A stretch of 63,698 nucleotides of DNA, the filler included, from Licmophora abbreviata (Eukaryota): assembly GCA_900291995.1 (NCBI GenBank). It is 13 parts of 13 records of this genome, joined end to end, with 100 filler letters (N's around TTAATTAATTAA, not from the genome) between each part and the next. Parts side by side here need not be neighbours in the genome. Positions count along the whole stretch, not along the records: positions 23,993 to 32,752 come from OLMU01001234.1; 12 more parts are not named here. The stretch is one strand, 5' to 3'. The translations under genes were made by a program, and so were the position numbers. Positions 6,238-47,900 of the stretch are shown piece by piece (position 1 is the stretch's first letter; every line of letters begins with the position of its first letter). The notes beneath the pieces were generated by a model that worked only from the letters and a program-made list of their open reading frames with translations, was not told where the DNA came from and did not search any database.

Positions 6238-7326
6238 ATGATTGCGGTTGGAAAGATACTTCCGCTGCTGGCGTTCCTCCTAGTGCTGTCTGTCAACCTG
6301 TACACCCACGTCATCTTGTTGCCGTCGACAACCTCGACAACAAGTTTTGGATACTCTGTTCCATACAAGTCTCTTCCGGACGTTCCGCTTTGCACTTCCA
6401 ACCCATACATTTCCTCTTTGAATGCCTCACTCCCCACCATTGCATCGCGCGCCGACGCCTGGTTGCGCAACGTGGACAAACACATGTCGCGCGCCACCTC
6501 GGAGAATGACCCAACACTCCGAAATCACACCCACGCCCGATTCTTCCCATTGCAAGAAATGACAGACTCTTGTATTCCCACATGTGTAGGAGGACGATGC
6601 TTTCGGGATGAAAGTAAGAGTGTCTGTGGACTGCAACAGCTAAATGACATGCCCAACAACAAGAACCAGTGCATCATTTACAGTATTGGAGGCAACAATC
6701 AGTGGAGCTTCGAACTGGATCTCTTACAGCAAACGACTTGCCAAGTGCACACCTTTGATTGTACGGGGAGTATAGAACGATTCAAGATTCCACCACATCC
6801 TCGACTGCACTTTCATCACGTGTGCTTAGGAGATGTGTCGCGGCCTGTGACATCCTGTGATGATGCTGGTGTTGATAGTAGTAGTTTGTGCGGACCCGTC
6901 ATGACATTGGCAGACATGCAGACTATGCTGGGGCATACGCGGTTGGATTTACTTAAAATGGATGTGGAGGGATACGAGTTCCCAGTCTTGAACAGCTGGC
7001 CTTTGTTGGGGGGTGCTAGTAGGGATCGTCATGATCCTGTAAATCACAGAGCCCGAACTACTAATGATGTCCCAATACTGCCAATGCAACTCCTGCTCGA
7101 GATTCATTATCGTACGCAGTTTTGCGATTTGGCAAGTACCATGTTTGGTAAGCTGCAAAATTGTAGTGACTACGAGCGACACGGCGATTGGGAAATTATG
7201 CAAGCGAGGGATTTTGTCAAATTGGAAGAACGGCTGTTGCGGATGGGCTATGTTGTGGCATTGCGGGACGACAATACCATGTGTTTGCACTGTACAGAAG
7301 TTACTCTTGTCAGGTATCGGTGTTGA
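6238..7326 (+). CDS. Type II membrane SAM-dependent methyltransferase-domain protein (Methyltransf_22 / METTL24-like)
   Basis: N-terminal signal anchor, CIIYSIGGNNQWSFE, CQVHTFDCTG, LDLLKMDVEGYEF, QLLLEIH and a C-terminal CxxCxE motif. Confidence 0.8.
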   Translation: MIAVGKILPLLAFLLVLSVNLYTHVILLPSTTSTTSFGYSVPYKSLPDVPLCTSNPYISSLNASLPTIASRADAWLRNVDKHMSRATSENDPTLRNHTHARFFPLQEMTDSCIPTCVGGRCFRDESKSVCGLQQLNDMPNNKNQCIIYSIGGNNQWSFELDLLQQTTCQVHTFDCTGSIERFKIPPHPRLHFHHVCLGDVSRPVTSCDDAGVDSSSLCGPVMTLADMQTMLGHTRLDLLKMDVEGYEFPVLNSWPLLGGASRDRHDPVNHRARTTNDVPILPMQLLLEIHYRTQFCDLASTMFGKLQNCSDYERHGDWEIMQARDFVKLEERLLRMGYVVALRDDNTMCLHCTEVTLVRYRC

Positions 7327-11276: not shown

Positions 11277-11986
11277 AAAGGAAAAAGGAGGAACACTGGC
11301 AGCACTTCATCGCACCGAATCGAATCACAGCATCAGTCAGTCATTATCAGTTTTGGGAGTTGTGGGGGACGAACTTAGTTTTCTGTGATAGGGCTAAGTT
11401 TATAGGGATAGCACCCGGAGCATCAACTTTGCTTCCGAGTCGTGTCCTGAAAATTTGAAAAAACACCAACCGTTGGGTGTAATTTTTTGCGCAATCGTGT
11501 GAGTATACACAGCCATCTTTGTGTTCGGAACATCAGCCAGTCCAGGAGACCACAGTCAGCTCCATTTGGCAGGCACTCANNNNNNNNNNNNNNNNNNNNN
11601 NNNNNNNNNNNNNNNNNNNNNNNTTAATTAATTAANNNNNNNNNNNNNNNNNNNNNNNNNNNNNNNNNNNNNNNNNNNNAAAGGAAAAAGGAGGAACACT
11701 GGCAGCACTTCATCGCACCGAATCGAATCACAGCATCAGTCAGTCATCATCAGTTTTGGGAGTTGTGGGGGAAGCACTTATTTTTCTGGGATAGGGCTAA
11801 GTTTACTGTATAGGGATAGCACCCGGAGCATCAACTTTGCTTCCGAGTCGTGTCCTGAAAATTTGAAAAAACACAAACCGTTGGGTGTAATTTTTGCGCA
11901 ATCGTGTGAGTATACACAGCCATCTTTGTGTTCGAAACATCAGCCAGTCCAGGAGACCACAGTCAGCTCCTTTTGGCAGGCACTCA
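11277..11986. repeat. About 305-bp near-identical duplication on both sides of the first gap (11277-11579 and 11680-11986), probably an allelic overlap
   Basis: Both copies run from aaaggaaaaaggaggaacact to caggcactca with a few substitutions and small indels. Confidence 0.9.
11580..11679. other. Artificial scaffold linker
   Basis: N44-TTAATTAATTAA-N44, 100 nt, stop codons in all six frames. Confidence 0.99.
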
Positions 11987-27769: not shown

Positions 27770-29806
27770 CTACGTCGTCCTTAGACTATCATATGTCGAT
27801 CGTTCGCTCCTCTCCTCAATGGTGGATAGCATGGATGCGAGTTCCGCAGGACTTGTATCGTGCCTGTTGCCATCGGCTTTTTTCTTACCACCGCCAAAGA
27901 CCTCTTGCAACTCATCCAACGTCTTTCCCTTGGTTTCCGGCAAAGTCCAATACAACCATACGAATCCACACCCACTCAGCACTGCGTACAGCCACATCGC
28001 ACGATGCGTCAAGAGACGTTCGGACAGCGTCAGGAAGCTTGCAGATATCATCAAGTTGCAAAGCCAATTGGTGCTTGTGGACAAACTCACGGCCAAACTG
28101 CGATATTTCACAGGATAAATCTCTGAATTGACCGTCCACGGGAGTCCGGCTAAGCCGATACCGAATACAACCAGGAAGAGAACCATAAACAGTACAGACA
28201 AGTAGCCGTATGGGTTCGAGCAGGACATGTAGTGAAAGGAAGCGTCGACTGGACACTGGTCCGTGTCGAATGGTCCATCGTGTGTTCCCTTGACGCACAC
28301 GCCACCGCAGAAGCCACAGTCGTCCATACCGACACAATCAAAGCAGTATGCAGTCACGCCACTCCATCCCCATCCGGGTTGCGATGCACAGGCATCACCT
28401 GCACTCGATCCTGTGACTAGCTCGGAGTCCACTCGGGCCAAGTAAAACGAGAATCCAAGTCCCACCAACGACAGGGTGACCAGACCCATACTCGTCAAGA
28501 GCAGTATACGACGTCCGGCAGTTCCAACTAGAAAGACACTCAACGCCAGCCCCAAAATCTGCGCGAGACTCGTAAATGCACTCAGCCAAATGGACGCGAC
28601 CTCATTGAATCCCGCCATTTGATAAATGGAAGCGGCGTAATACAGGACGCTATTGACACCGCACCATTGTTGCAGTACCATCAAACTGCATCCCACAACC
28701 AACGCTCTTCGTGTAGATGTGTTCTCCCACATTTCCATAAACGACGCCTCTTCATCATCACCTCCCACCATGGCCATATTTTCTTGAATCTCCAACAACT
28801 CTGCTTGCACATCCTCTTCCGTATCGCGTAGCGTCCTCAGAATCTCTGCCGCTTGTTCTCTTTTCTTCTTGGACACTAACCAGCTCGGCGACTCTGGAAG
28901 ATTCCAGAATCCCACAAACATGACGATCCCCGGCACGGCTGCCATGCCCAACATAAAGCGCCAGCCGTGGTGGTACGGAGCGAGTAGGCCATCGACTATC
29001 CCAGCAAAGAACTGTCCAAAGCACATCATTAACGCGTAGGTAGACACCAGCATGCCTCGCAAGCTTGGTTTGGCCATTTCTGCAATGTACATGGGCGACG
29101 TCAGAGACTCAATGCCAATGCCAGTACCAAGGAGTATTTCGCCAATGACAAGCATGCTGTAGTTCATGGCACAAAATAGGACCACGGCACCCAGTACAAA
29201 GACAGCCGCTGCGAGCAAGATTGTCTTCTTTCGTCCATACTTGTCATTCAAGTGTCCACCGAGAAAGCTACTTCGAAACGCCGCGAAAATGGTGGCGCTA
29301 ATGATGAGTTCCTTGTGCATTGCCGTCAACTGAAAGACTCTTGCGAGTGGCAGTAGAGCACCACTCAAAACACCAGTATTGTACCCACTCAAGAAGCCCC
29401 CCAAAGCCGCTATGCATGTTATTGTCCGCATGCGCCTCATGACTTCTTGGCATCGCTCCGAGTCCGGGGGTGGTGGTATATGTAGCAAACTCCGTCGATC
29501 TACATCCCGATCGAGCTCTGCATCGAGTGTCAACAAGTGCTGCAAATCCGCAATGTCGATGTCGAGTCCGCTGATTTTTCTATGCTTCAAATGAGAAATC
29601 GTACTGCGACGATCTCCTCTTGTTGCTGCTAGCGTACTCATACGTACGGTTGGAATGGGGCGATTCACGGAAGGGCGGACTGTAACTATGGTAGTTCGGC
29701 GACCGACCAACAGTCGATCCGCCTCTGCCAGCGTATCTTGAATCGACAGTGGCTCTTCTTGAAGCAGTGATTCATCGTACTCATCAGGAGTCTTTGACGA
29801 CGTCAT
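27770..29806 (-). CDS. MFS sugar porter, H+/myo-inositol cotransporter (HMIT/INT) type
   Basis: GGFLSGYNTGVLSGAL, DKYGRK, PMYIAE, LPESP, LQQWCGVNSVLYY, GRR, PWTVNSEIYP and LPETKG, plus a Cys-rich extracellular loop (CFDCVGMDDCGFC) typical of the HMIT/INT subfamily. An alternative start lies at 29848. Confidence 0.92.
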   Translation of the reverse strand: MTSSKTPDEYDESLLQEEPLSIQDTLAEADRLLVGRRTTIVTVRPSVNRPIPTVRMSTLAATRGDRRSTISHLKHRKISGLDIDIADLQHLLTLDAELDRDVDRRSLLHIPPPPDSERCQEVMRRMRTITCIAALGGFLSGYNTGVLSGALLPLARVFQLTAMHKELIISATIFAAFRSSFLGGHLNDKYGRKKTILLAAAVFVLGAVVLFCAMNYSMLVIGEILLGTGIGIESLTSPMYIAEMAKPSLRGMLVSTYALMMCFGQFFAGIVDGLLAPYHHGWRFMLGMAAVPGIVMFVGFWNLPESPSWLVSKKKREQAAEILRTLRDTEEDVQAELLEIQENMAMVGGDDEEASFMEMWENTSTRRALVVGCSLMVLQQWCGVNSVLYYAASIYQMAGFNEVASIWLSAFTSLAQILGLALSVFLVGTAGRRILLLTSMGLVTLSLVGLGFSFYLARVDSELVTGSSAGDACASQPGWGWSGVTAYCFDCVGMDDCGFCGGVCVKGTHDGPFDTDQCPVDASFHYMSCSNPYGYLSVLFMVLFLVVFGIGLAGLPWTVNSEIYPVKYRSLAVSLSTSTNWLCNLMISASFLTLSERLLTHRAMWLYAVLSGCGFVWLYWTLPETKGKTLDELQEVFGGGKKKADGNRHDTSPAELASMLSTIEERSERSTYDSLRTT

Positions 29807-30062
29807 GGGTTCTTGACGATGAGGAAAAGAGACGACAAAAGGAGACATGCGTTCACCCGGAGCATGTGTTTCTGGTGTGTGTTGTGTGTCGACGACGAAA
29901 GATCTCAAGATCTCAAGATCTCATCATTTTGTTCTGAGTTTTAGATTGAGAAATGTCATTGTGACGTGAATGAACCAAGTCCCGCCTATCGTCATACTCG
30001 ACACCAAACTGCCATTCCATATTCCATGCATGCTACGGCACAATCAGATCTATCTAGCGGTT

Positions 30063-32447
30063 TTACTTTGGTAGACTTTGGCCATTGCCCCAGTGTATCT
30101 CTTTGATAGGCAGATCAAACTGGTCGGAAAACGGGGCGGGATCCTCGCCATCATAGATATGAGCCAATAGCTTCGCGTTGGTCTCGTCGATCTGACCGCA
30201 ATAAGCACCTGCAACAATACGCATCTCAGCTTCGTCTTCGTAGATGTTTGGACTCGTCTTGTGGTATCCCCAATCGCTCAGGACGAACGCCAAGTCGTAT
30301 TCGTAGTTGACGGACACAACAATGTTTGCATCGTCGCTGATAATATCAAGCTCCGGCTTGGACCCCTCCACGACCAAGAGCGGAAAAATGATGTTGAAGC
30401 CTTTCTCGCCGCTCGCATAGACATCGGCGTGTGTCAAGCTGTTATCACACTCCGTAACTCCCATGAACGAGGAATGAAAACATGTCATGTTGTCTAGCCC
30501 AAAACCGTTGCCAATGCTATCCAACACCACATCGAAGCCTCCGCTACCCATGGCCCGTAGGAAACTGACACGGGCCGATTCGTCCCACGCTGCAATGTAG
30601 TGCATGTTGAATTTCCACGCATCGCTCATGTATCGATGAGCAAACCACTGCTCCCCCTCGGCGTCATCGAAAATGCGCCATTCATCACTTTGGAGAATGT
30701 TCTCGTCAAACAATTTCTTGTATACGGCTGTAATTCCACGATCTTCTGAGAACTTGCGAATGTGTTGCGAAAATCCCGTGGGTAGGCCGACTCGAAATGC
30801 GCTCTTGGCAACGGGGTTACCGTTATGCGCCCACTTGAGCTGCTCCAACTCGCCCGCTTTCAATGGAACATCGCGGGGAGCGATCTCATAGATGGCCTCT
30901 TGCTTCCACACATCGGGGAAGAAACCCTTTGGGACGTTGATTTCATGACGAAATATTGAGTAATCGGAGTCTGAATCTTCCGTTTCGGTTCTCCGAGCCT
31001 CGACATGTTTTTCCCACGCATCCTCCCAATCGGAGCCATAGTCAATGAAGATTTCCTCGCCGGGCTCGATATCGCGCAGCGCAACAATGTCCATCATGAG
31101 TTTGCCACTCATTTCGAGGACATCCAGAGGGTGCAAATCAAGCCAGTCGCTCGGGTCACCCAGAATAGATGAGTGCTCATCTGGCCATCGAATCTCGGCG
31201 TTCGGGGCAGAACCGTCGTGATTGACAAAATTGACAATCGGTGCAATTGGCACAAAAAGCATCGGTGAATCGGGATCTCCGTAGCAGTAATTGAGTAGCA
31301 GTTCCTGACCTTCGACCTTGTCAAAGTTGAGAACATCTCGAGATGAGCTCTGGTCGCCATTGGCCTCGTAAATGACCAAATCGTCTCTCTTGAGCGCCAA
31401 AAGTGGTGACGGGGATACTATCGAGCCTTGGCTTATGCGGTGCCGCGCAAAGGCACCTCTTCCAGCCTGAGGTTTCGTGGATCGTCCAACGTACAAACTG
31501 TCAATACACACACCTTCGCGTTTCAACCACTCGACATCCTTGACGGGGTCAACTTCCGCCTCGTCACTCACTGTTTTCTTCGGCAAGGCGTTGAACTGGT
31601 CGCCATGAGATCCAAAATCGGGATTCTCCAATTTGCTCCTCTTGTCCTGTTCGGTAGGCAAATTCCTACCCTCGACTCGCCCTGCCCAGTCTTCAATCGT
31701 CTCGAATGCCTGCAGCGTTCTACTCTTATCCTCAAAATCTTCATGCCACTGATCTCCATAGTCCAGAAACAATTCCGATCCCGCCGGAATGTCTTCGGTT
31801 GCCAAGAAGGAGACTCCCAAATGAGGAGAGAAGGATCCCTCTCCAGGTTCACCATGCCCCACCCGCGCCATGTCTTGCCGCTCCGCATCATCGTCTTTTT
31901 CTATATTGACCAAGAGAGGATGCGAATTGACCTGCGATGCCAGTCCAGGAGCAAATACACCCACAAAGTCGTCGTCCACAACATTGTCCAAAAAGGACAA
32001 CCCATCCGCTGCATTGAGTCCTTCTTCGACACGATACAAGGAAGCTGGAATGGAAGGGAAGGAGTGTCGCGCCGCGTGGTAGAATTGATCGGGTACATTG
32101 GGCCAGACGTAGCCGAGCCAGGACAAGAACTGTTGTTGTCCTCGATACGGGAGTGTCTTGAAGTCGTCGGCAATGGAAATCATGAGATCATCTGCTTCAC
32201 CGATAGTCCACCCCTCCGCGACATCCACGGCTGTGTAGACTCCCAGTCCTGCCCCAGGAATAGAAGAAGGTGCCAGGTAGAGTGAGCATGTACTAGAGAA
32301 AGTGCTACTACTGCTACTGCTACTACTACTTTCGCCCGTCAAAGAGGCAGGACAGCTTGGTTCTTCTACAGCAATCACAAATGTCAAACTCCAAACGGAG
32401 GTGACGACGACGAAAGCCAACGCTATCGTTCTGCAATGTATCCCCAT
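30063..32447 (-). CDS. Secreted/ER-targeted tandem SET-domain protein with C-terminal putative 2OG-Fe(II) oxygenase-like domain
   Basis: Signal peptide. SET1: CSLYLAPSSIPGAGLGVY..VNSHP..ATEDIPAGSELFLDYG. SET2: STKPQAGRGAFA..NFVNHD..ALRDIEPGEEIFIDYG. C-terminus: THADVY..FNIIFPL..YHKT..MRIVAG. Confidence 0.85.
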   Translation of the reverse strand: MGIHCRTIALAFVVVTSVWSLTFVIAVEEPSCPASLTGESSSSSSSSSTFSSTCSLYLAPSSIPGAGLGVYTAVDVAEGWTIGEADDLMISIADDFKTLPYRGQQQFLSWLGYVWPNVPDQFYHAARHSFPSIPASLYRVEEGLNAADGLSFLDNVVDDDFVGVFAPGLASQVNSHPLLVNIEKDDDAERQDMARVGHGEPGEGSFSPHLGVSFLATEDIPAGSELFLDYGDQWHEDFEDKSRTLQAFETIEDWAGRVEGRNLPTEQDKRSKLENPDFGSHGDQFNALPKKTVSDEAEVDPVKDVEWLKREGVCIDSLYVGRSTKPQAGRGAFARHRISQGSIVSPSPLLALKRDDLVIYEANGDQSSSRDVLNFDKVEGQELLLNYCYGDPDSPMLFVPIAPIVNFVNHDGSAPNAEIRWPDEHSSILGDPSDWLDLHPLDVLEMSGKLMMDIVALRDIEPGEEIFIDYGSDWEDAWEKHVEARRTETEDSDSDYSIFRHEINVPKGFFPDVWKQEAIYEIAPRDVPLKAGELEQLKWAHNGNPVAKSAFRVGLPTGFSQHIRKFSEDRGITAVYKKLFDENILQSDEWRIFDDAEGEQWFAHRYMSDAWKFNMHYIAAWDESARVSFLRAMGSGGFDVVLDSIGNGFGLDNMTCFHSSFMGVTECDNSLTHADVYASGEKGFNIIFPLLVVEGSKPELDIISDDANIVVSVNYEYDLAFVLSDWGYHKTSPNIYEDEAEMRIVAGAYCGQIDETNAKLLAHIYDGEDPAPFSDQFDLPIKEIHWGNGQSLPK

Positions 32448-32752
32448 GCTCGTTGCTTGTCAACACAGAAGTCTCAGTGTGATGTGTGTATCTTGCTATA
32501 GTTTGATTTAGTAGTTGTCGTCCTTTGGAACGGGTGGCATAGGATGACTGTCATGGCATGGCATGTCATACTCGGAGTATGATACAGTCCACTCAGGAGC
32601 ACATGAAAATAATGGAGTGTAGCACGCGCCAGCCGGCCGGTATGGGTCTACGCCGGTGTTCGCGGACCATCATCGTCCCCGAACCCCAAAAAATTAAGTA
32701 CCAGAACCTACGCGAAATCTCTGGCAAGGTAATACTCAGTCCTCATTTTTAT

Positions 32753-32852
32753 NNNNNNNNNNNNNNNNNNNNNNNNNNNNNNNNNNNNNNNNNNNNTTAA
32801 TTAATTAANNNNNNNNNNNNNNNNNNNNNNNNNNNNNNNNNNNNNNNNNNNN
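32753..32852. other. Artificial scaffold linker
   Basis: N44-TTAATTAATTAA-N44. Confidence 0.99.
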
Positions 32853-44973: not shown

Positions 44974-47900
44974 CTAGGCGGCGACCATTCCTCGTTGGAG
45001 TTCTTCAATGATTGCCTCGTGGTCAAGCGTTACCTTGGCCTTTTCCAACAGCTCGTAGATGCTCGCGGACTTCTGACAAACTTCAATCTGGTGTGTAAGC
45101 CGCGCTGCGCTCTCGGCCACAGCCTCGTCGCTCATGCTTAAAATGAATTCTGCTGAGAGCTGATCGAGAATAGCATAGAGGGTAATCATCGGCCGCAATG
45201 CCATTGCAAAGTCGTCGATCTGAGGGAGACCACGTTTCCGGGACGGAGGCTTTCGGCGGGCAGGTACAGCCGAGGGCGCACTACCGGTGTCGCCGAAATC
45301 CCACTCTGTAAAGGAGCTAGAACGGGCTGACCGCGTACCTCGGGGAGTACGGAGGACAGCTCCGCATCCACTATCTTCCACTTTGAGGGCGTGGCGTCGA
45401 CCAGCGCAGACAATCAGCCCACGAAGGAAATCTTCGCGGTGTACAGCCCAGCGCCGTCGCGGGTGTGGTGAGTCCGCCTTCTCCGTAGCAGCAGGGTCCT
45501 CGTCGCACATATTATGGAACAAGATGGCACAGAGAGCTGCCATTGGAGCTGCGTCGGCAATACCACGAGTCATTGACATGGCCGTCTCGGATGAAGAATC
45601 AAAGTCGCTTGCCCTTAGTATGTTCATCGCAGCGAGGAAGGCGGAGCTCAAGACTCGAGCGTGCTGAGCCGTCTCTGAATCGTCCAGGTCGGCGTTGTTG
45701 GTGAACATGTTCGACATGAAGAGCTGATAAAATATCAAAGAAGCGTTCGAGGTCAGTGATCCACCTCCACAATCGACATTCAGAGCCTCCCCGTAGGCCA
45801 TGCGAAGCATAAGAAAACGAACATCATGAAGTGCAGACCAGAGAGTTGACTTCGGACGCGTGCCCAATAGATTGACAATGGCAGTCTCATATTCCGAGAG
45901 CGCCATGTCGACGGCGACAAGCGACACCTTCGTGCTCTTGGAGGAAACCAGCGGCAGAATGGCATTGCACGCCACTCGTGAGTTTCGAAGACAGGCGCCT
46001 TCCCATTCGCCTGCGGTACACGAATGAAACAAGCACGAAAAAGTAAGCACCGAATGATCATGCAGCGTAGAGCAATCGAGAATTTGAACAACGTGAACTT
46101 ACTCTTTGGCGCCCGAGGGTGGTTTCGATCTGCCGAACGAGCTCTCGAGTGGCAGCTGCAGTGAATCGCGTTGCCAGCGGATACAGTCGAAGTGAACTGA
46201 ACAGCTCTTCGACTCTGCGACGATCCAGAGCTGGCGGACGATTGATCGCGACTTTTTCTCAACGCTTCCGCCGTGCTTTTCGAAAGCTGAAACCACTCGT
46301 GCTCGACATGTGTACTAAGAAGCGACACTGGGAGTGATGACGGGAGCGACAGAAGAAGCATTGTACCATCAATATTATCCCGTCCACCAAACCGATTCGA
46401 TGAACTGGTCACTTTCTTGATATAAACGTACAAACCCAGTAGCTCAGTCGGCTGCAAGGTCCGCCCCTCTTGGCAAACGGCGCACGTTAGTCCAGTTTCG
46501 TCCTCCATGGCCTCCATCTCGGCCATCCAGGCAGGAATCTTCGCATCGGGCTTTTGCGCAGACTGTCCCTGTTTTGCAGCCCCGCGTCTCGATCTTGAAG
46601 GGGTGCCTTCGGTCGTCGATGACACGGTGGCTGCCGTGTTCCCTGAGCTGTGGAAAAGGCCAAGAACTGGTGCGAGGAGAGAAACAGCTCCAACTCGGCC
46701 TGGTGCTGATGCAGCTTCGTCAACGCTTGCTTCTGAAGGCATTGCAGCGCTTCCCGCCAGTGGACCGAATTTACTCATGCTCGTGAGAGTCTTGCTTCTT
46801 CGTTCTTCCGATATCTCCTTCTTCCGATCACGCGTCTTTCGCCGGATTTCTTCTATTTTCTCCCCGACTTTATCGTTNNNNNNNNNNNNNNNNNNNNNNN
46901 NNNNNNNNNNNNNNNNNNNNNTTAATTAATTAANNNNNNNNNNNNNNNNNNNNNNNNNNNNNNNNNNNNNNNNNNNNGGATTTCTTCTATTTTCTCCCCG
47001 ACTTTATCGTTGCCCTGTGCCAACTCATCCAGCAGGGTTTCCGCTAGCAAGCCCATCCCGTTCGTCGATATACACAGAGATGAGTTGTCTGATGTGGACT
47101 CCATCCAATGGCATGCAAGGAGGAAAGAAGGTCCGTGAGATCCGGCCTCGCCCACCTCCGCAATCAAAGATTGGGTAGAGAGATGATCATTGCACATGCC
47201 TGCCAGCATCTGAAACGCTGTCCGAAGCCCCAAGCGCTGAAAATAGGCTCTCCATCCTTTTTCTAGTGTGTCTCTTTTCGCAGCGATCCTATCTGATTTC
47301 GACCATAGTGCGGCAGTCCACGATGGAGGCTGAGACGGTAGGTCACGCAGTATAAAGCCGGCGATTAGTTCCACGAACCCGCACCGCATGAGTTCTGCGC
47401 GCAGAGCGTGACAGACGTCACTTGGCGGAAGACTGATTGCCGCCTGAACAAAGACATCCATTAGGATTGACGACCGCGTCGAACTCTTGCTTGAGCTCTC
47501 GAATGCACTCAAAGTGTCGATATTCACATGTCTAGCAAAATGCGATGCCAATTCGCACGACAGTGATACCTGTCCATACGTTAGGAAGGGCAAGAGCTTG
47601 GCGATAACTCTTCGCAGAGGAGGCCCGAGATAGGTTGTCTGAAGAGATGATAATAACAACGGAAGGGTGGAAGCATCTCGTTCTGAGTCCGCCTTGGTCA
47701 CATCTTCCGATGCCGCAAGCGCACTTTCCGTCTCGACAGAAATGTCTGAGGCGAGAACCTCGATTAGTTCCTTGAGGATATCGGCAGTTGGATTGCTGGT
47801 GGCATGTGAAGGATCAGATGGATCAGACGCGTGCTGTCCTTCGTCATCCGACGAGTCCGCGATGGACGACGTTGAATCATCCAACGCATGGAGAACGTCC

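Follow-up and report, generated by a model that had tools for sequence, protein, structure and literature searches.

We analysed a 63,698-nucleotide stretch of DNA from Licmophora abbreviata (assembly GCA_900291995.1), called the window here at its full length, in which a gene on the minus strand at 30063 to 32447, within record OLMU01001234.1, encodes a protein of 794 amino acids (aa). This diatom protein, P0001, carries a hydrophobic N-terminus, two predicted SET folds and a C-terminal domain with the predicted fold of an Fe(II)/2-oxoglutarate (2OG) oxygenase, pointing to a putative secretory enzyme in which a lysine methyltransferase and an oxygenase would be joined. The open reading frame is collinear with 19 diatom-type homologues (41-56% identity, 789-808 aa, alignment A1) from M1 to the final ...SLPK. 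Because P0001 aligns with these homologues from the start methionine to the C-terminus, no intron is needed and a single exon suffices. The reading frame had been proposed in an initial annotation, made from the sequence alone, and is real; every motif named there lies within a few bases of where it had been placed. The features, with the double-stranded beta-helix abbreviated as DSBH and AlphaFold2 as AF2, are as follows.

30063..32447, minus strand: whole open reading frame, 794 aa plus stop (P0001), a stop-free reading frame
32367..32447, minus strand: signal-like hydrophobic segment, residues 1-27 (h-region 8-26), found by hydropathy, with an inferred cleavage site
31743..32288, minus strand: putative divergent N-terminal SET-fold domain, residues ~54-235, with a large low-confidence insert; GAGLG, N174-S175...N181, ELFLDY230G
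31035..31463, minus strand: second SET domain, residues 329-471, Pfam PF00856; N409-H410...N416, EIFIDY470G
30078..30869, minus strand: predicted PhyH-like Fe(II)/2OG-oxygenase fold domain, residues ~527-790, by AF2, Foldseek, VIA-align and ESM Atlas
30434-30420, minus strand: motif THADV, residues 672-676
30423..30431, minus strand: H673-A-D675, proposed proximal iron ligands at the end of DSBH strand II, invariant in A1
30398-30378, minus strand: motif FNIIFPL, residues 684-690
30266-30255, minus strand: motif YHKT, residues 728-731
30261..30263, minus strand: H729, proposed distal iron ligand (YHKT) on strand VII, invariant in A1 and in the 36-sequence alignment A2
30255..30257, minus strand: T731 (distal His +2), possible 2OG-carboxylate contact by the pattern of PhyH
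30224-30213, minus strand: motif MRIV, residues 742-745
30219..30221, minus strand: R743, proposed 2OG C5 carboxylate binder at the start of strand VIII (RIVAGAY), invariant in A1

Fold of the C-terminal domain

The AF2 model of the C-terminal domain, built on A2, is a confident DSBH model with a mean pLDDT (predicted local distance difference test) of 89.3 and a pTM (predicted template modelling score) of 0.89, the five models ranging from 88.3 to 89.3. Compared with the PDB by Foldseek, it matched 464 or more chains at E<=0.001, and the 29 rows listed are without exception Fe(II)/2OG-type oxygenases. Among those listed are SnoN (2e-7), OkaE, FtmOx1, AsqJ, CurA halogenase, SptF, TlxIJ and an oxygenase of the 2OG type from Burkholderia. 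Prolyl hydroxylases are also listed, among them Dictyostelium and human enzymes and a prolyl 4-hydroxylase, and 6t8m, 4iw3 and PHD2 rank at E 3e-7 to 3e-6. VIA-align of the same model gave a Z of 13.3 for SnoN (root-mean-square deviation 3.2 A, 205 residues aligned), followed by SnoK (13.2), CurA Hal (12.8), AviO1 (12.3), OkaE (12.2), human PhyH (11.6) and the proline hydroxylase 7dt0 (11.4), rows within one Z unit counting as tied. A Z of 8 or above was reached by 787 of the 999 chains, where 7-8 is typical for models without a true match, and the coverage takes in the whole domain (model residues 28-301). Subject to the ties within one Z unit, the PhyH-like enzymes form the nearest structural group to the modelled domain. 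The language-model neighbours in the ESM Atlas were named '2OG-Fe(II) oxygenase family protein' (0.95), 'putative phytanoyl-CoA dioxygenase' (0.93) and HalD/2OG-FeII_Oxy_3 (0.92). On the strength of these models, the last ~265 aa of P0001 almost certainly adopt a double-stranded beta-helix Fe(II)/2OG-oxygenase fold.

In the model, strands run over residues 165-178, ~181-185 (THAD), 194-202, 211-214, 221-224, 230-234, 239-242 (YHKT) and 254-262 (RIVAG), in a numbering to which 489 is added to obtain that of the protein. Read as DSBH strands I-VIII, they put HxD at the end of II, H729 on VII and R743 first in VIII, a placement read from the strand topology of the AF2 model. Enzymes of this superfamily carry their facial triad and their 2OG-C5 carboxylate binder in just these places. 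PhyH additionally has an H-x-S pattern, which is paralleled by T731 two residues past the distal His.

Conservation of the proposed catalytic residues

Conservation provides a stronger argument than the strand positions. All 232 domain hits in 194 proteins were aligned to the hidden Markov model (HMM) of A2, and in 210 of these copies the core is covered. Among the 210, His stands at position 673 in 185 and at position 729 in 182, Asp at position 675 in 190 and Arg at position 743 in 179; position 731 holds Thr in 169 and Ser in nine. Most mismatches at the four positions belong to truncated fragments or to extra tandem copies. Indeed, H-D-H-R are all intact in 136 of the 137 complete single-copy relatives, the exception being P0154 (Y-D-H-L). 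Of the 36 multi-hit proteins, in some of which the hits are two parts of a single domain, 31 retain one intact copy or more. Where the tandem is clear, the additional copies have lost between one and all four of the H-D-H-R residues, as in P0033 (QYHR/HDHR/HDHV/YDQV), P0037 (YGHQ/LDYR/HDHR) and P0142 (YEYG/HDHR). One maintained intact copy beside decaying duplicates is the pattern expected if the H-D-H-R residues are catalytic. By itself an HxD...H...R string is weak evidence; conservation and fold lift it above chance. It was from the order and spacing of these motifs that the initial annotation had taken the domain for a DSBH oxygenase, and the Foldseek matches, the strand positions II, VII and VIII and the conservation of all four residues bear this out. 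We therefore regard the modelled C-terminal domain of P0001 as very probably an active 2OG oxygenase. A halogenase was considered and rejected, the Asp of the triad (D675) being present here and in 190 of the 210 copies.

These data also bear on the idea that the DSBH domain is a dead binding module that only recognises the substrate for SET, for example as a methyl-lysine reader. Non-catalytic copies of the fold do exist, and many tandem copies in relatives are without the triad. The copy in P0001, however, retains H, D, H, T and R, and the single-copy and multi-hit counts given above speak against a dead module in the family at large, so that we consider this very improbable. The tandem arrays of two to four copies, usually with one intact H-D-H-R set, were seen in P0033, P0034, P0037, P0049, P0057, P0059, P0063-P0068, P0085 and P0104; judged by their residues, the decayed copies may be pseudo-enzymes or readers.

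Family and domain architectures

An exhaustive HMMER search of 1.84 billion cluster representatives (50% identity) returned 398 proteins at E<=0.001, of which 106 reach E<=1e-30. The domain occurs behind SET, alone in proteins of ~300-480 aa, several of which begin with a hydrophobic segment of their own, and in the tandem arrays of two to four copies. PF00856 was found in 31 of 31 close homologues of P0001 and in 38 of the 48 long distant relatives scanned; nine of the other ten gave no Pfam hit, and the tenth is P0142. All three homologues with a named organism come from diatoms (Seminavis robusta, Nitzschia inconspicua and a Bacillariaceae metagenome-assembled genome). The 'diatom-specific' status of the family is taken from the literature. 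One of the relatives, P0007 from Seminavis robusta (935 aa, SET and the new domain), goes under the name 'Guanylate cyclase' in NCBI and UniRef, probably by misannotation, as its precomputed Pfam domains list no cyclase.

P0142 (1133 aa) has a degenerate copy of the domain (Y-E-Y-G), an intact copy (H-D-H-R), an ShK domain and a genuine PF13640 domain of the prolyl 4-hydroxylase (P4H) type, all without SET, and by its sequence looks like a multi-oxygenase secretory protein. This architecture matters for an alternative in which the new domain is a hydroxylase of proline or another residue, making the hydroxyproline or 3,4-dihydroxyproline of wall proteins, and in which the SET fusion merely groups wall-modifying activities. 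Such a role would agree with the Foldseek ranking of 6t8m, 4iw3 and PHD2 and with the Z of 11.4 for 7dt0, and 3,4-dihydroxyproline is a known wall amino acid according to passages of a review (PMC4557024). In P0142, however, the separate P4H-type domain adjoins the new domain, which speaks for separate tasks of the two oxygenase types. The fusion to SET, close and almost universal, moreover points to lysine, and we find the proline alternative improbable.

The SET domains

SET domains are protein-lysine methyltransferases that are classically nuclear. Their N-H motif binds S-adenosylmethionine (SAM) and the Tyr of ELxxDY is catalytic. The whole of P0001 matched the Pfam SET family with an E of 2.9e-13 (50.6 bits) in two stretches. 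Taken alone, the second SET domain matched PF00856 at E 6.2e-10 with 39.9 bits against a cutoff of 22.4, and both N409-H410 and Y470 are present. The first reached 17.1 bits, below the same cutoff, over residues 205-231 only (27 residues). It retains the GxG block, the N-x6-N block and the tyrosine of ELFLDY230G, and has Ser in place of the canonical His of the N-H motif (N174-S175, both at least 90% conserved in A1). The AF2 model of this first domain, from a 25-sequence alignment (A4), is mediocre (pLDDT 67.1, pTM 0.68) and contains a long low-confidence insert. Its best Foldseek matches were all SET enzymes, namely SETD8 (E 3.3e-4), EZH2, MLL3, PRDM3/9 and SET7/9; ten matches lie at E<=0.001, the top matches having E values of 3e-4 to 1e-2 and TM-scores of 0.3-0.46. 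The full-length family profile matched PRDM9 in the first SET (E 0.0059) and EZH2 in the second (E 1.4e-4). Together with the model, these results suggest that P0001 holds two SET folds, a putative divergent one and a canonical one. Of the two complete SET domains claimed in the initial annotation, the second thus stands, while the first is divergent and falls short of that description.

The N-terminus and the location of P0001

Residues 8-26 are the sole strongly hydrophobic stretch of P0001, with a mean Kyte-Doolittle value of 2.35 over 19 aa, and a hydrophobic N-terminus recurs among the A1 homologues. With a 12-aa window and a mean Kyte-Doolittle value of at least 2.0 as the criterion, 81 of the 187 family members that start with Met have a hydrophobic segment within the first 45 aa, compared to one of 165 in an internal control window; many of the segment-negative members are fragments or have doubtful starts. 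Additionally, ShK domains, which are typical of extracellular proteins, are present in two relatives, P0142 and one member of A2. Hydropathy is consistent with a signal peptide or a signal anchor, both being equally possible, so that the hydrophobic segment of the initial annotation is confirmed and its assignment as a signal peptide is left undistinguished from an anchor. From these data a lumenal location of P0001 is very likely.

Plastid targeting was judged unlikely on the basis of the ASAFAP rule, as the sequence after the hydrophobic segment reads ...VIA/VEEP and is without an aromatic residue. The extreme C-terminus shows a conserved H-W-x(4-6)-LP(K/R), in the window at 30066-30090 and in the homologues, where these are often the last residues of the protein; this motif could serve as a sorting or retention signal.

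A nuclear or cytosolic chromatin enzyme, whose hydrophobic N-terminus would be an annotation artefact, is extremely improbable. It would suit the classical home of SET domains, and the N-terminus was judged by hydropathy only. Against it stand the recurrence of the hydrophobic N-terminus (81/187 vs 1/165), the extracellular-type ShK domains in relatives and the description of the SET family as wall-associated (10.1101/2020.11.23.393678).

That family is the BacSETs (Nemoto 2020, Mar Biotechnol 22:551), which passages of the papers citing that work describe as ER-targeted (endoplasmic reticulum) diatom SET proteins linked to the wall (PMC11151724, PMC11554505, 10.1101/2020.11.23.393678), as the initial annotation had stated for such proteins. 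In Seminavis robusta, cytokinesis is reported as the time at which 24 BacSETs peak along with silicanins, frustulins and silicon transporters (10.1101/2020.11.23.393678). With its SET domains and hydrophobic N-terminus, P0001 is a putative member of the BacSET type. The half consisting of SET and signal peptide has already been described as BacSET and is hence not new. A full-text literature search, which covers subscription journals thinly, found no paper that assigns an oxygenase to the silaffin pathway or to BacSETs, and no later claim to the silaffin lysine-modifying enzymes after PMC4557024. Within the literature searched, neither the oxygenase nature of the C-terminal domain nor, with it, the fusion of methylase and oxygenase appears to have been described.

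Proposed mechanism and alternatives

According to the review passages (PMC4557024), both epsilon-N,N,N-trimethyl-delta-hydroxylysine and 3,4-dihydroxyproline occur in diatom walls, the delta-hydroxylated lysines are the trimethylated ones, and KXXK clusters are maybe the recognition motif of unidentified modifying enzymes. The same passages report that silaffins carry mixed lysine methylation states and that the makers of the methylated, delta-hydroxylated and phosphorylated silaffin lysines had not been identified (PMC4557024).

On this background we propose that the signal peptide or anchor would take P0001 into the pathway of ER, Golgi and silica deposition as a protein of three modules, with a divergent SET fold first, then a canonical SET lysine methyltransferase and, at the C-terminus, an Fe(II)/2OG oxygenase of the PhyH-like structural group. 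With SAM, the SET module or modules would methylate the epsilon-amino groups of lysines in lysine-rich wall or biosilica proteins, in clusters of the KXXK type. The tethered oxygenase would bind Fe(II) via H673/D675/H729 and 2OG via R743 (and T731), and would use O2 to hydroxylate C-delta of the same (trimethyl)lysine side chain. The product would be epsilon-N,N,N-trimethyl-delta-hydroxylysine, whose hydroxyl group would be phosphorylated later. Since hydroxylation falls on the trimethylated lysines, the combination of methylation and hydroxylation fits the known chemistry and is what one expects of physically fused catalysts. Animals and plants offer good precedents for lumenal 2OG oxygenases in their prolyl and lysyl hydroxylases.

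The domain order, the oxygenase fold and the conserved H673-x-D675...H729 together with T731 and R743 are the part of this explanation that our analysis demonstrates. As a whole, a BacSET-type lumenal SET-SET-oxygenase that methylates and then delta-hydroxylates lysines is our best explanation, and we rate it at about an even chance. Lysine delta-hydroxylation as the reaction we hold at a little short of even. More tentative still, and rather doubtful than probable, is the bolder proposal that one lumenal polypeptide makes the hallmark silaffin residue: SET would trimethylate KXXK lysines, and an oxygenase of an unrecognised PhyH-like family would hydroxylate C-delta and thereby create the phosphorylation site, with the dead tandem copies perhaps acting as trimethyl-lysine readers.

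Several points weigh against the methylase-hydroxylase explanation. Without the His of the N-H motif the first SET may be inactive. The nearest structural neighbours of the oxygenase domain (SnoN, CurA Hal, AsqJ, PhyH) act on small molecules and not on protein lysines, and the P4H-type oxygenase that P0142 also bears means that other enzymes may do the hydroxylation here. The link to wall formation rests on the papers that cite Nemoto 2020, as far as their passages go. Finally, searches on the sequence level were negative. Pfam gave no oxygenase family for residues 490-794 (E<=10) or for 36 relatives (E<=1), and PF05721 PhyH, PF13640, PF03171 and PF23169 HalD were matched neither by the domain nor by these relatives. 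A PDB sequence search and a 36-relative profile search with the domain returned only chance-level matches to ankyrin and lactoperoxidase, and hhalign of A2 against the PF13640 (2OG-FeII_Oxy_3) domain of P0142 was not significant (probability 0.2%). The oxygenase family of P0001 lies outside Pfam coverage. In these searches a Pfam match to Tombus_P19 (E 0.063, below the cutoff) was disregarded, and the chance lining-up of HxD and distal His in the P0142 alignment was not counted.

The mixed methylation states of silaffins in the review passages (PMC4557024) would also suit a writer-eraser, in which the oxygenase hydroxylates the N-methyl carbon and so demethylates methyl-lysine in the manner of JmjC or AlkB enzymes, tuning the mono-, di- and trimethyl states set by SET. 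The same fold and cofactor set would serve demethylation, and SET is fused to the domain in 31/31 close homologues. A methylase fused to its own eraser would, however, run a futile cycle, and Pfam scans of P0001 gave no JmjC. Among the best 50 of the 999 VIA-align rows there is likewise no JmjC enzyme, their place being taken by PhyH-like hydroxylases and halogenases, which is not an exclusion. The Arg of strand VIII is moreover a PhyH/TauD-type 2OG contact, instead of which JmjC enzymes use Lys/Tyr. We consider a writer-eraser unlikely.

A further possibility is that the oxygenase, and perhaps SET too, act on long-chain polyamines (LCPA) or another small lumenal amine and not on protein lysine. 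SET domains are established as protein-lysine methyltransferases, which counts against polyamines; the nearest structural neighbours, SnoN/SnoK, CurA Hal, KanJ, AsqJ and PhyH, are small-molecule enzymes, which counts for them. LCPA methylation is named as a possible BacSET role in passages of two papers (PMC11151724, PMC11554505), while the review passages mention no hydroxylated polyamine (PMC4557024). Overall we give an amine substrate of this kind a low probability.

If the bolder proposal of a single lumenal polypeptide is true, the family of P0001 would represent the long-sought lysine-modifying machinery of diatom biosilica, and silica patterning would require O2, Fe(II), 2OG and ascorbate within the secretory pathway. 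The tie between frustule formation and iron supply that the initial annotation drew is speculation. A predicted intact 2OG oxygenase in wall-associated SET proteins makes an old biosilica question directly testable, and could aid the production of natively modified silaffin peptides for biomimetic silica. The analysis also corrects at least one public protein name, the 'Guanylate cyclase' of the Seminavis homologue.

The gene in its surroundings

A search for a second gene copy by tblastn of P0001 against the window matched only the gene itself. In the comparison with sequencing runs, run X1 gave four contigs of 90-201 nt, 95-100% alike to the window over 31791-32638 and with adapter-like loose ends, which are uninformative on expression and on gene structure. 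They cover the 5' part of the gene and the region upstream, and their ends resemble transposase-library adapters, which points to low-depth sampling elsewhere of this organism or of one very near to it. Runs X2 and X3 gave no match to the gene.

Elsewhere the window has the look of ordinary nuclear DNA of a eukaryote, with proteins of the SMC, GH3, sugar transporter, amino-acid transporter, aldehyde dehydrogenase and trypsin-like protease types and with UBR4-like pieces. The individual observations are these.

6238-7326, plus strand: 362-aa open reading frame with Methyltransf_22 and FkbM-type methyltransferase domains
27770-29848, minus strand: neighbouring gene for a 692-aa sugar/MFS (major facilitator superfamily) transporter, Sugar_tr E 2.7e-95, with an N-terminal extension of ~140 aa and a Cys-rich loop insert ...CFDCVGMDDCGFCGGVCV...
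44974-46778, minus strand: two adjacent open reading frames, each similar to a different part of the UBR4 E3-ligase model and probably belonging as exons to one larger gene with introns
12 places, for example 11580-11679 and 32753-32852: 44-base N runs, paired 12 bases apart, 1056 N in total, in appearance more like masking than like assembly gaps; the pair at 32753-32852 lies ~300 bp upstream of the P0001 start

PF05050 FkbM methyltransferases are listed among silicon-responsive diatom genes in a passage of one paper (PMC11151724).

Comparison with known systems

The JmjC KDMs and JMJD6 are likewise DSBH 2OG oxygenases that act on protein (methyl)lysine, and SET and JmjC form the classical pair of writer and eraser. 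They differ from P0001 in being nuclear or cytosolic and in their 2OG contact. TMLH of carnitine synthesis is a 2OG oxygenase that hydroxylates epsilon-N-trimethyl-lysine. Its target is C3 of the free amino acid; the enzyme resides in mitochondria, is a member of the TauD/BBOX group and is not among the structural matches listed by Foldseek and VIA-align. In concept, P0001 as proposed would resemble PLOD/LH1-3 and the prolyl 4-hydroxylases, which are lumenal, depend on Fe, 2OG and ascorbate and hydroxylate C5 (delta) of peptidyl Lys/Pro. The PLODs, however, are fused to glycosyltransferase domains and not to SET, and P0001 is without a PF03171 or PF13640 match.

The PhyH-like enzymes (SnoN/SnoK 5ep9, 5epa; CurA halogenase 3nnl; human PhyH 2a1x; AsqJ, FtmOx1, OkaE, KanJ) share with the predicted domain the DSBH core and an N-terminal helical/strand extension. 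They align with the P0001 domain at Z 11.6-13.3 over ~200 residues, with an identity of just 7-14%. Both have HxD...H, a Thr or Ser at the distal His +2 and the strand VIII Arg, residues whose roles are those known from PhyH. The PhyH-like enzymes are soluble small-molecule enzymes of bacteria, fungi and peroxisomes, whereas P0001 appears to be secretory and is SET-fused. Finally, the BacSETs, as they are portrayed in passages of the citing papers, have in common with P0001 that they are diatom proteins in which a SET domain goes with a signal-like hydrophobic N-terminus, and their family is co-expressed with wall genes. They have been described solely as methyltransferases, whereas the C-terminal third of P0001 is predicted to form a 2OG-oxygenase fold.

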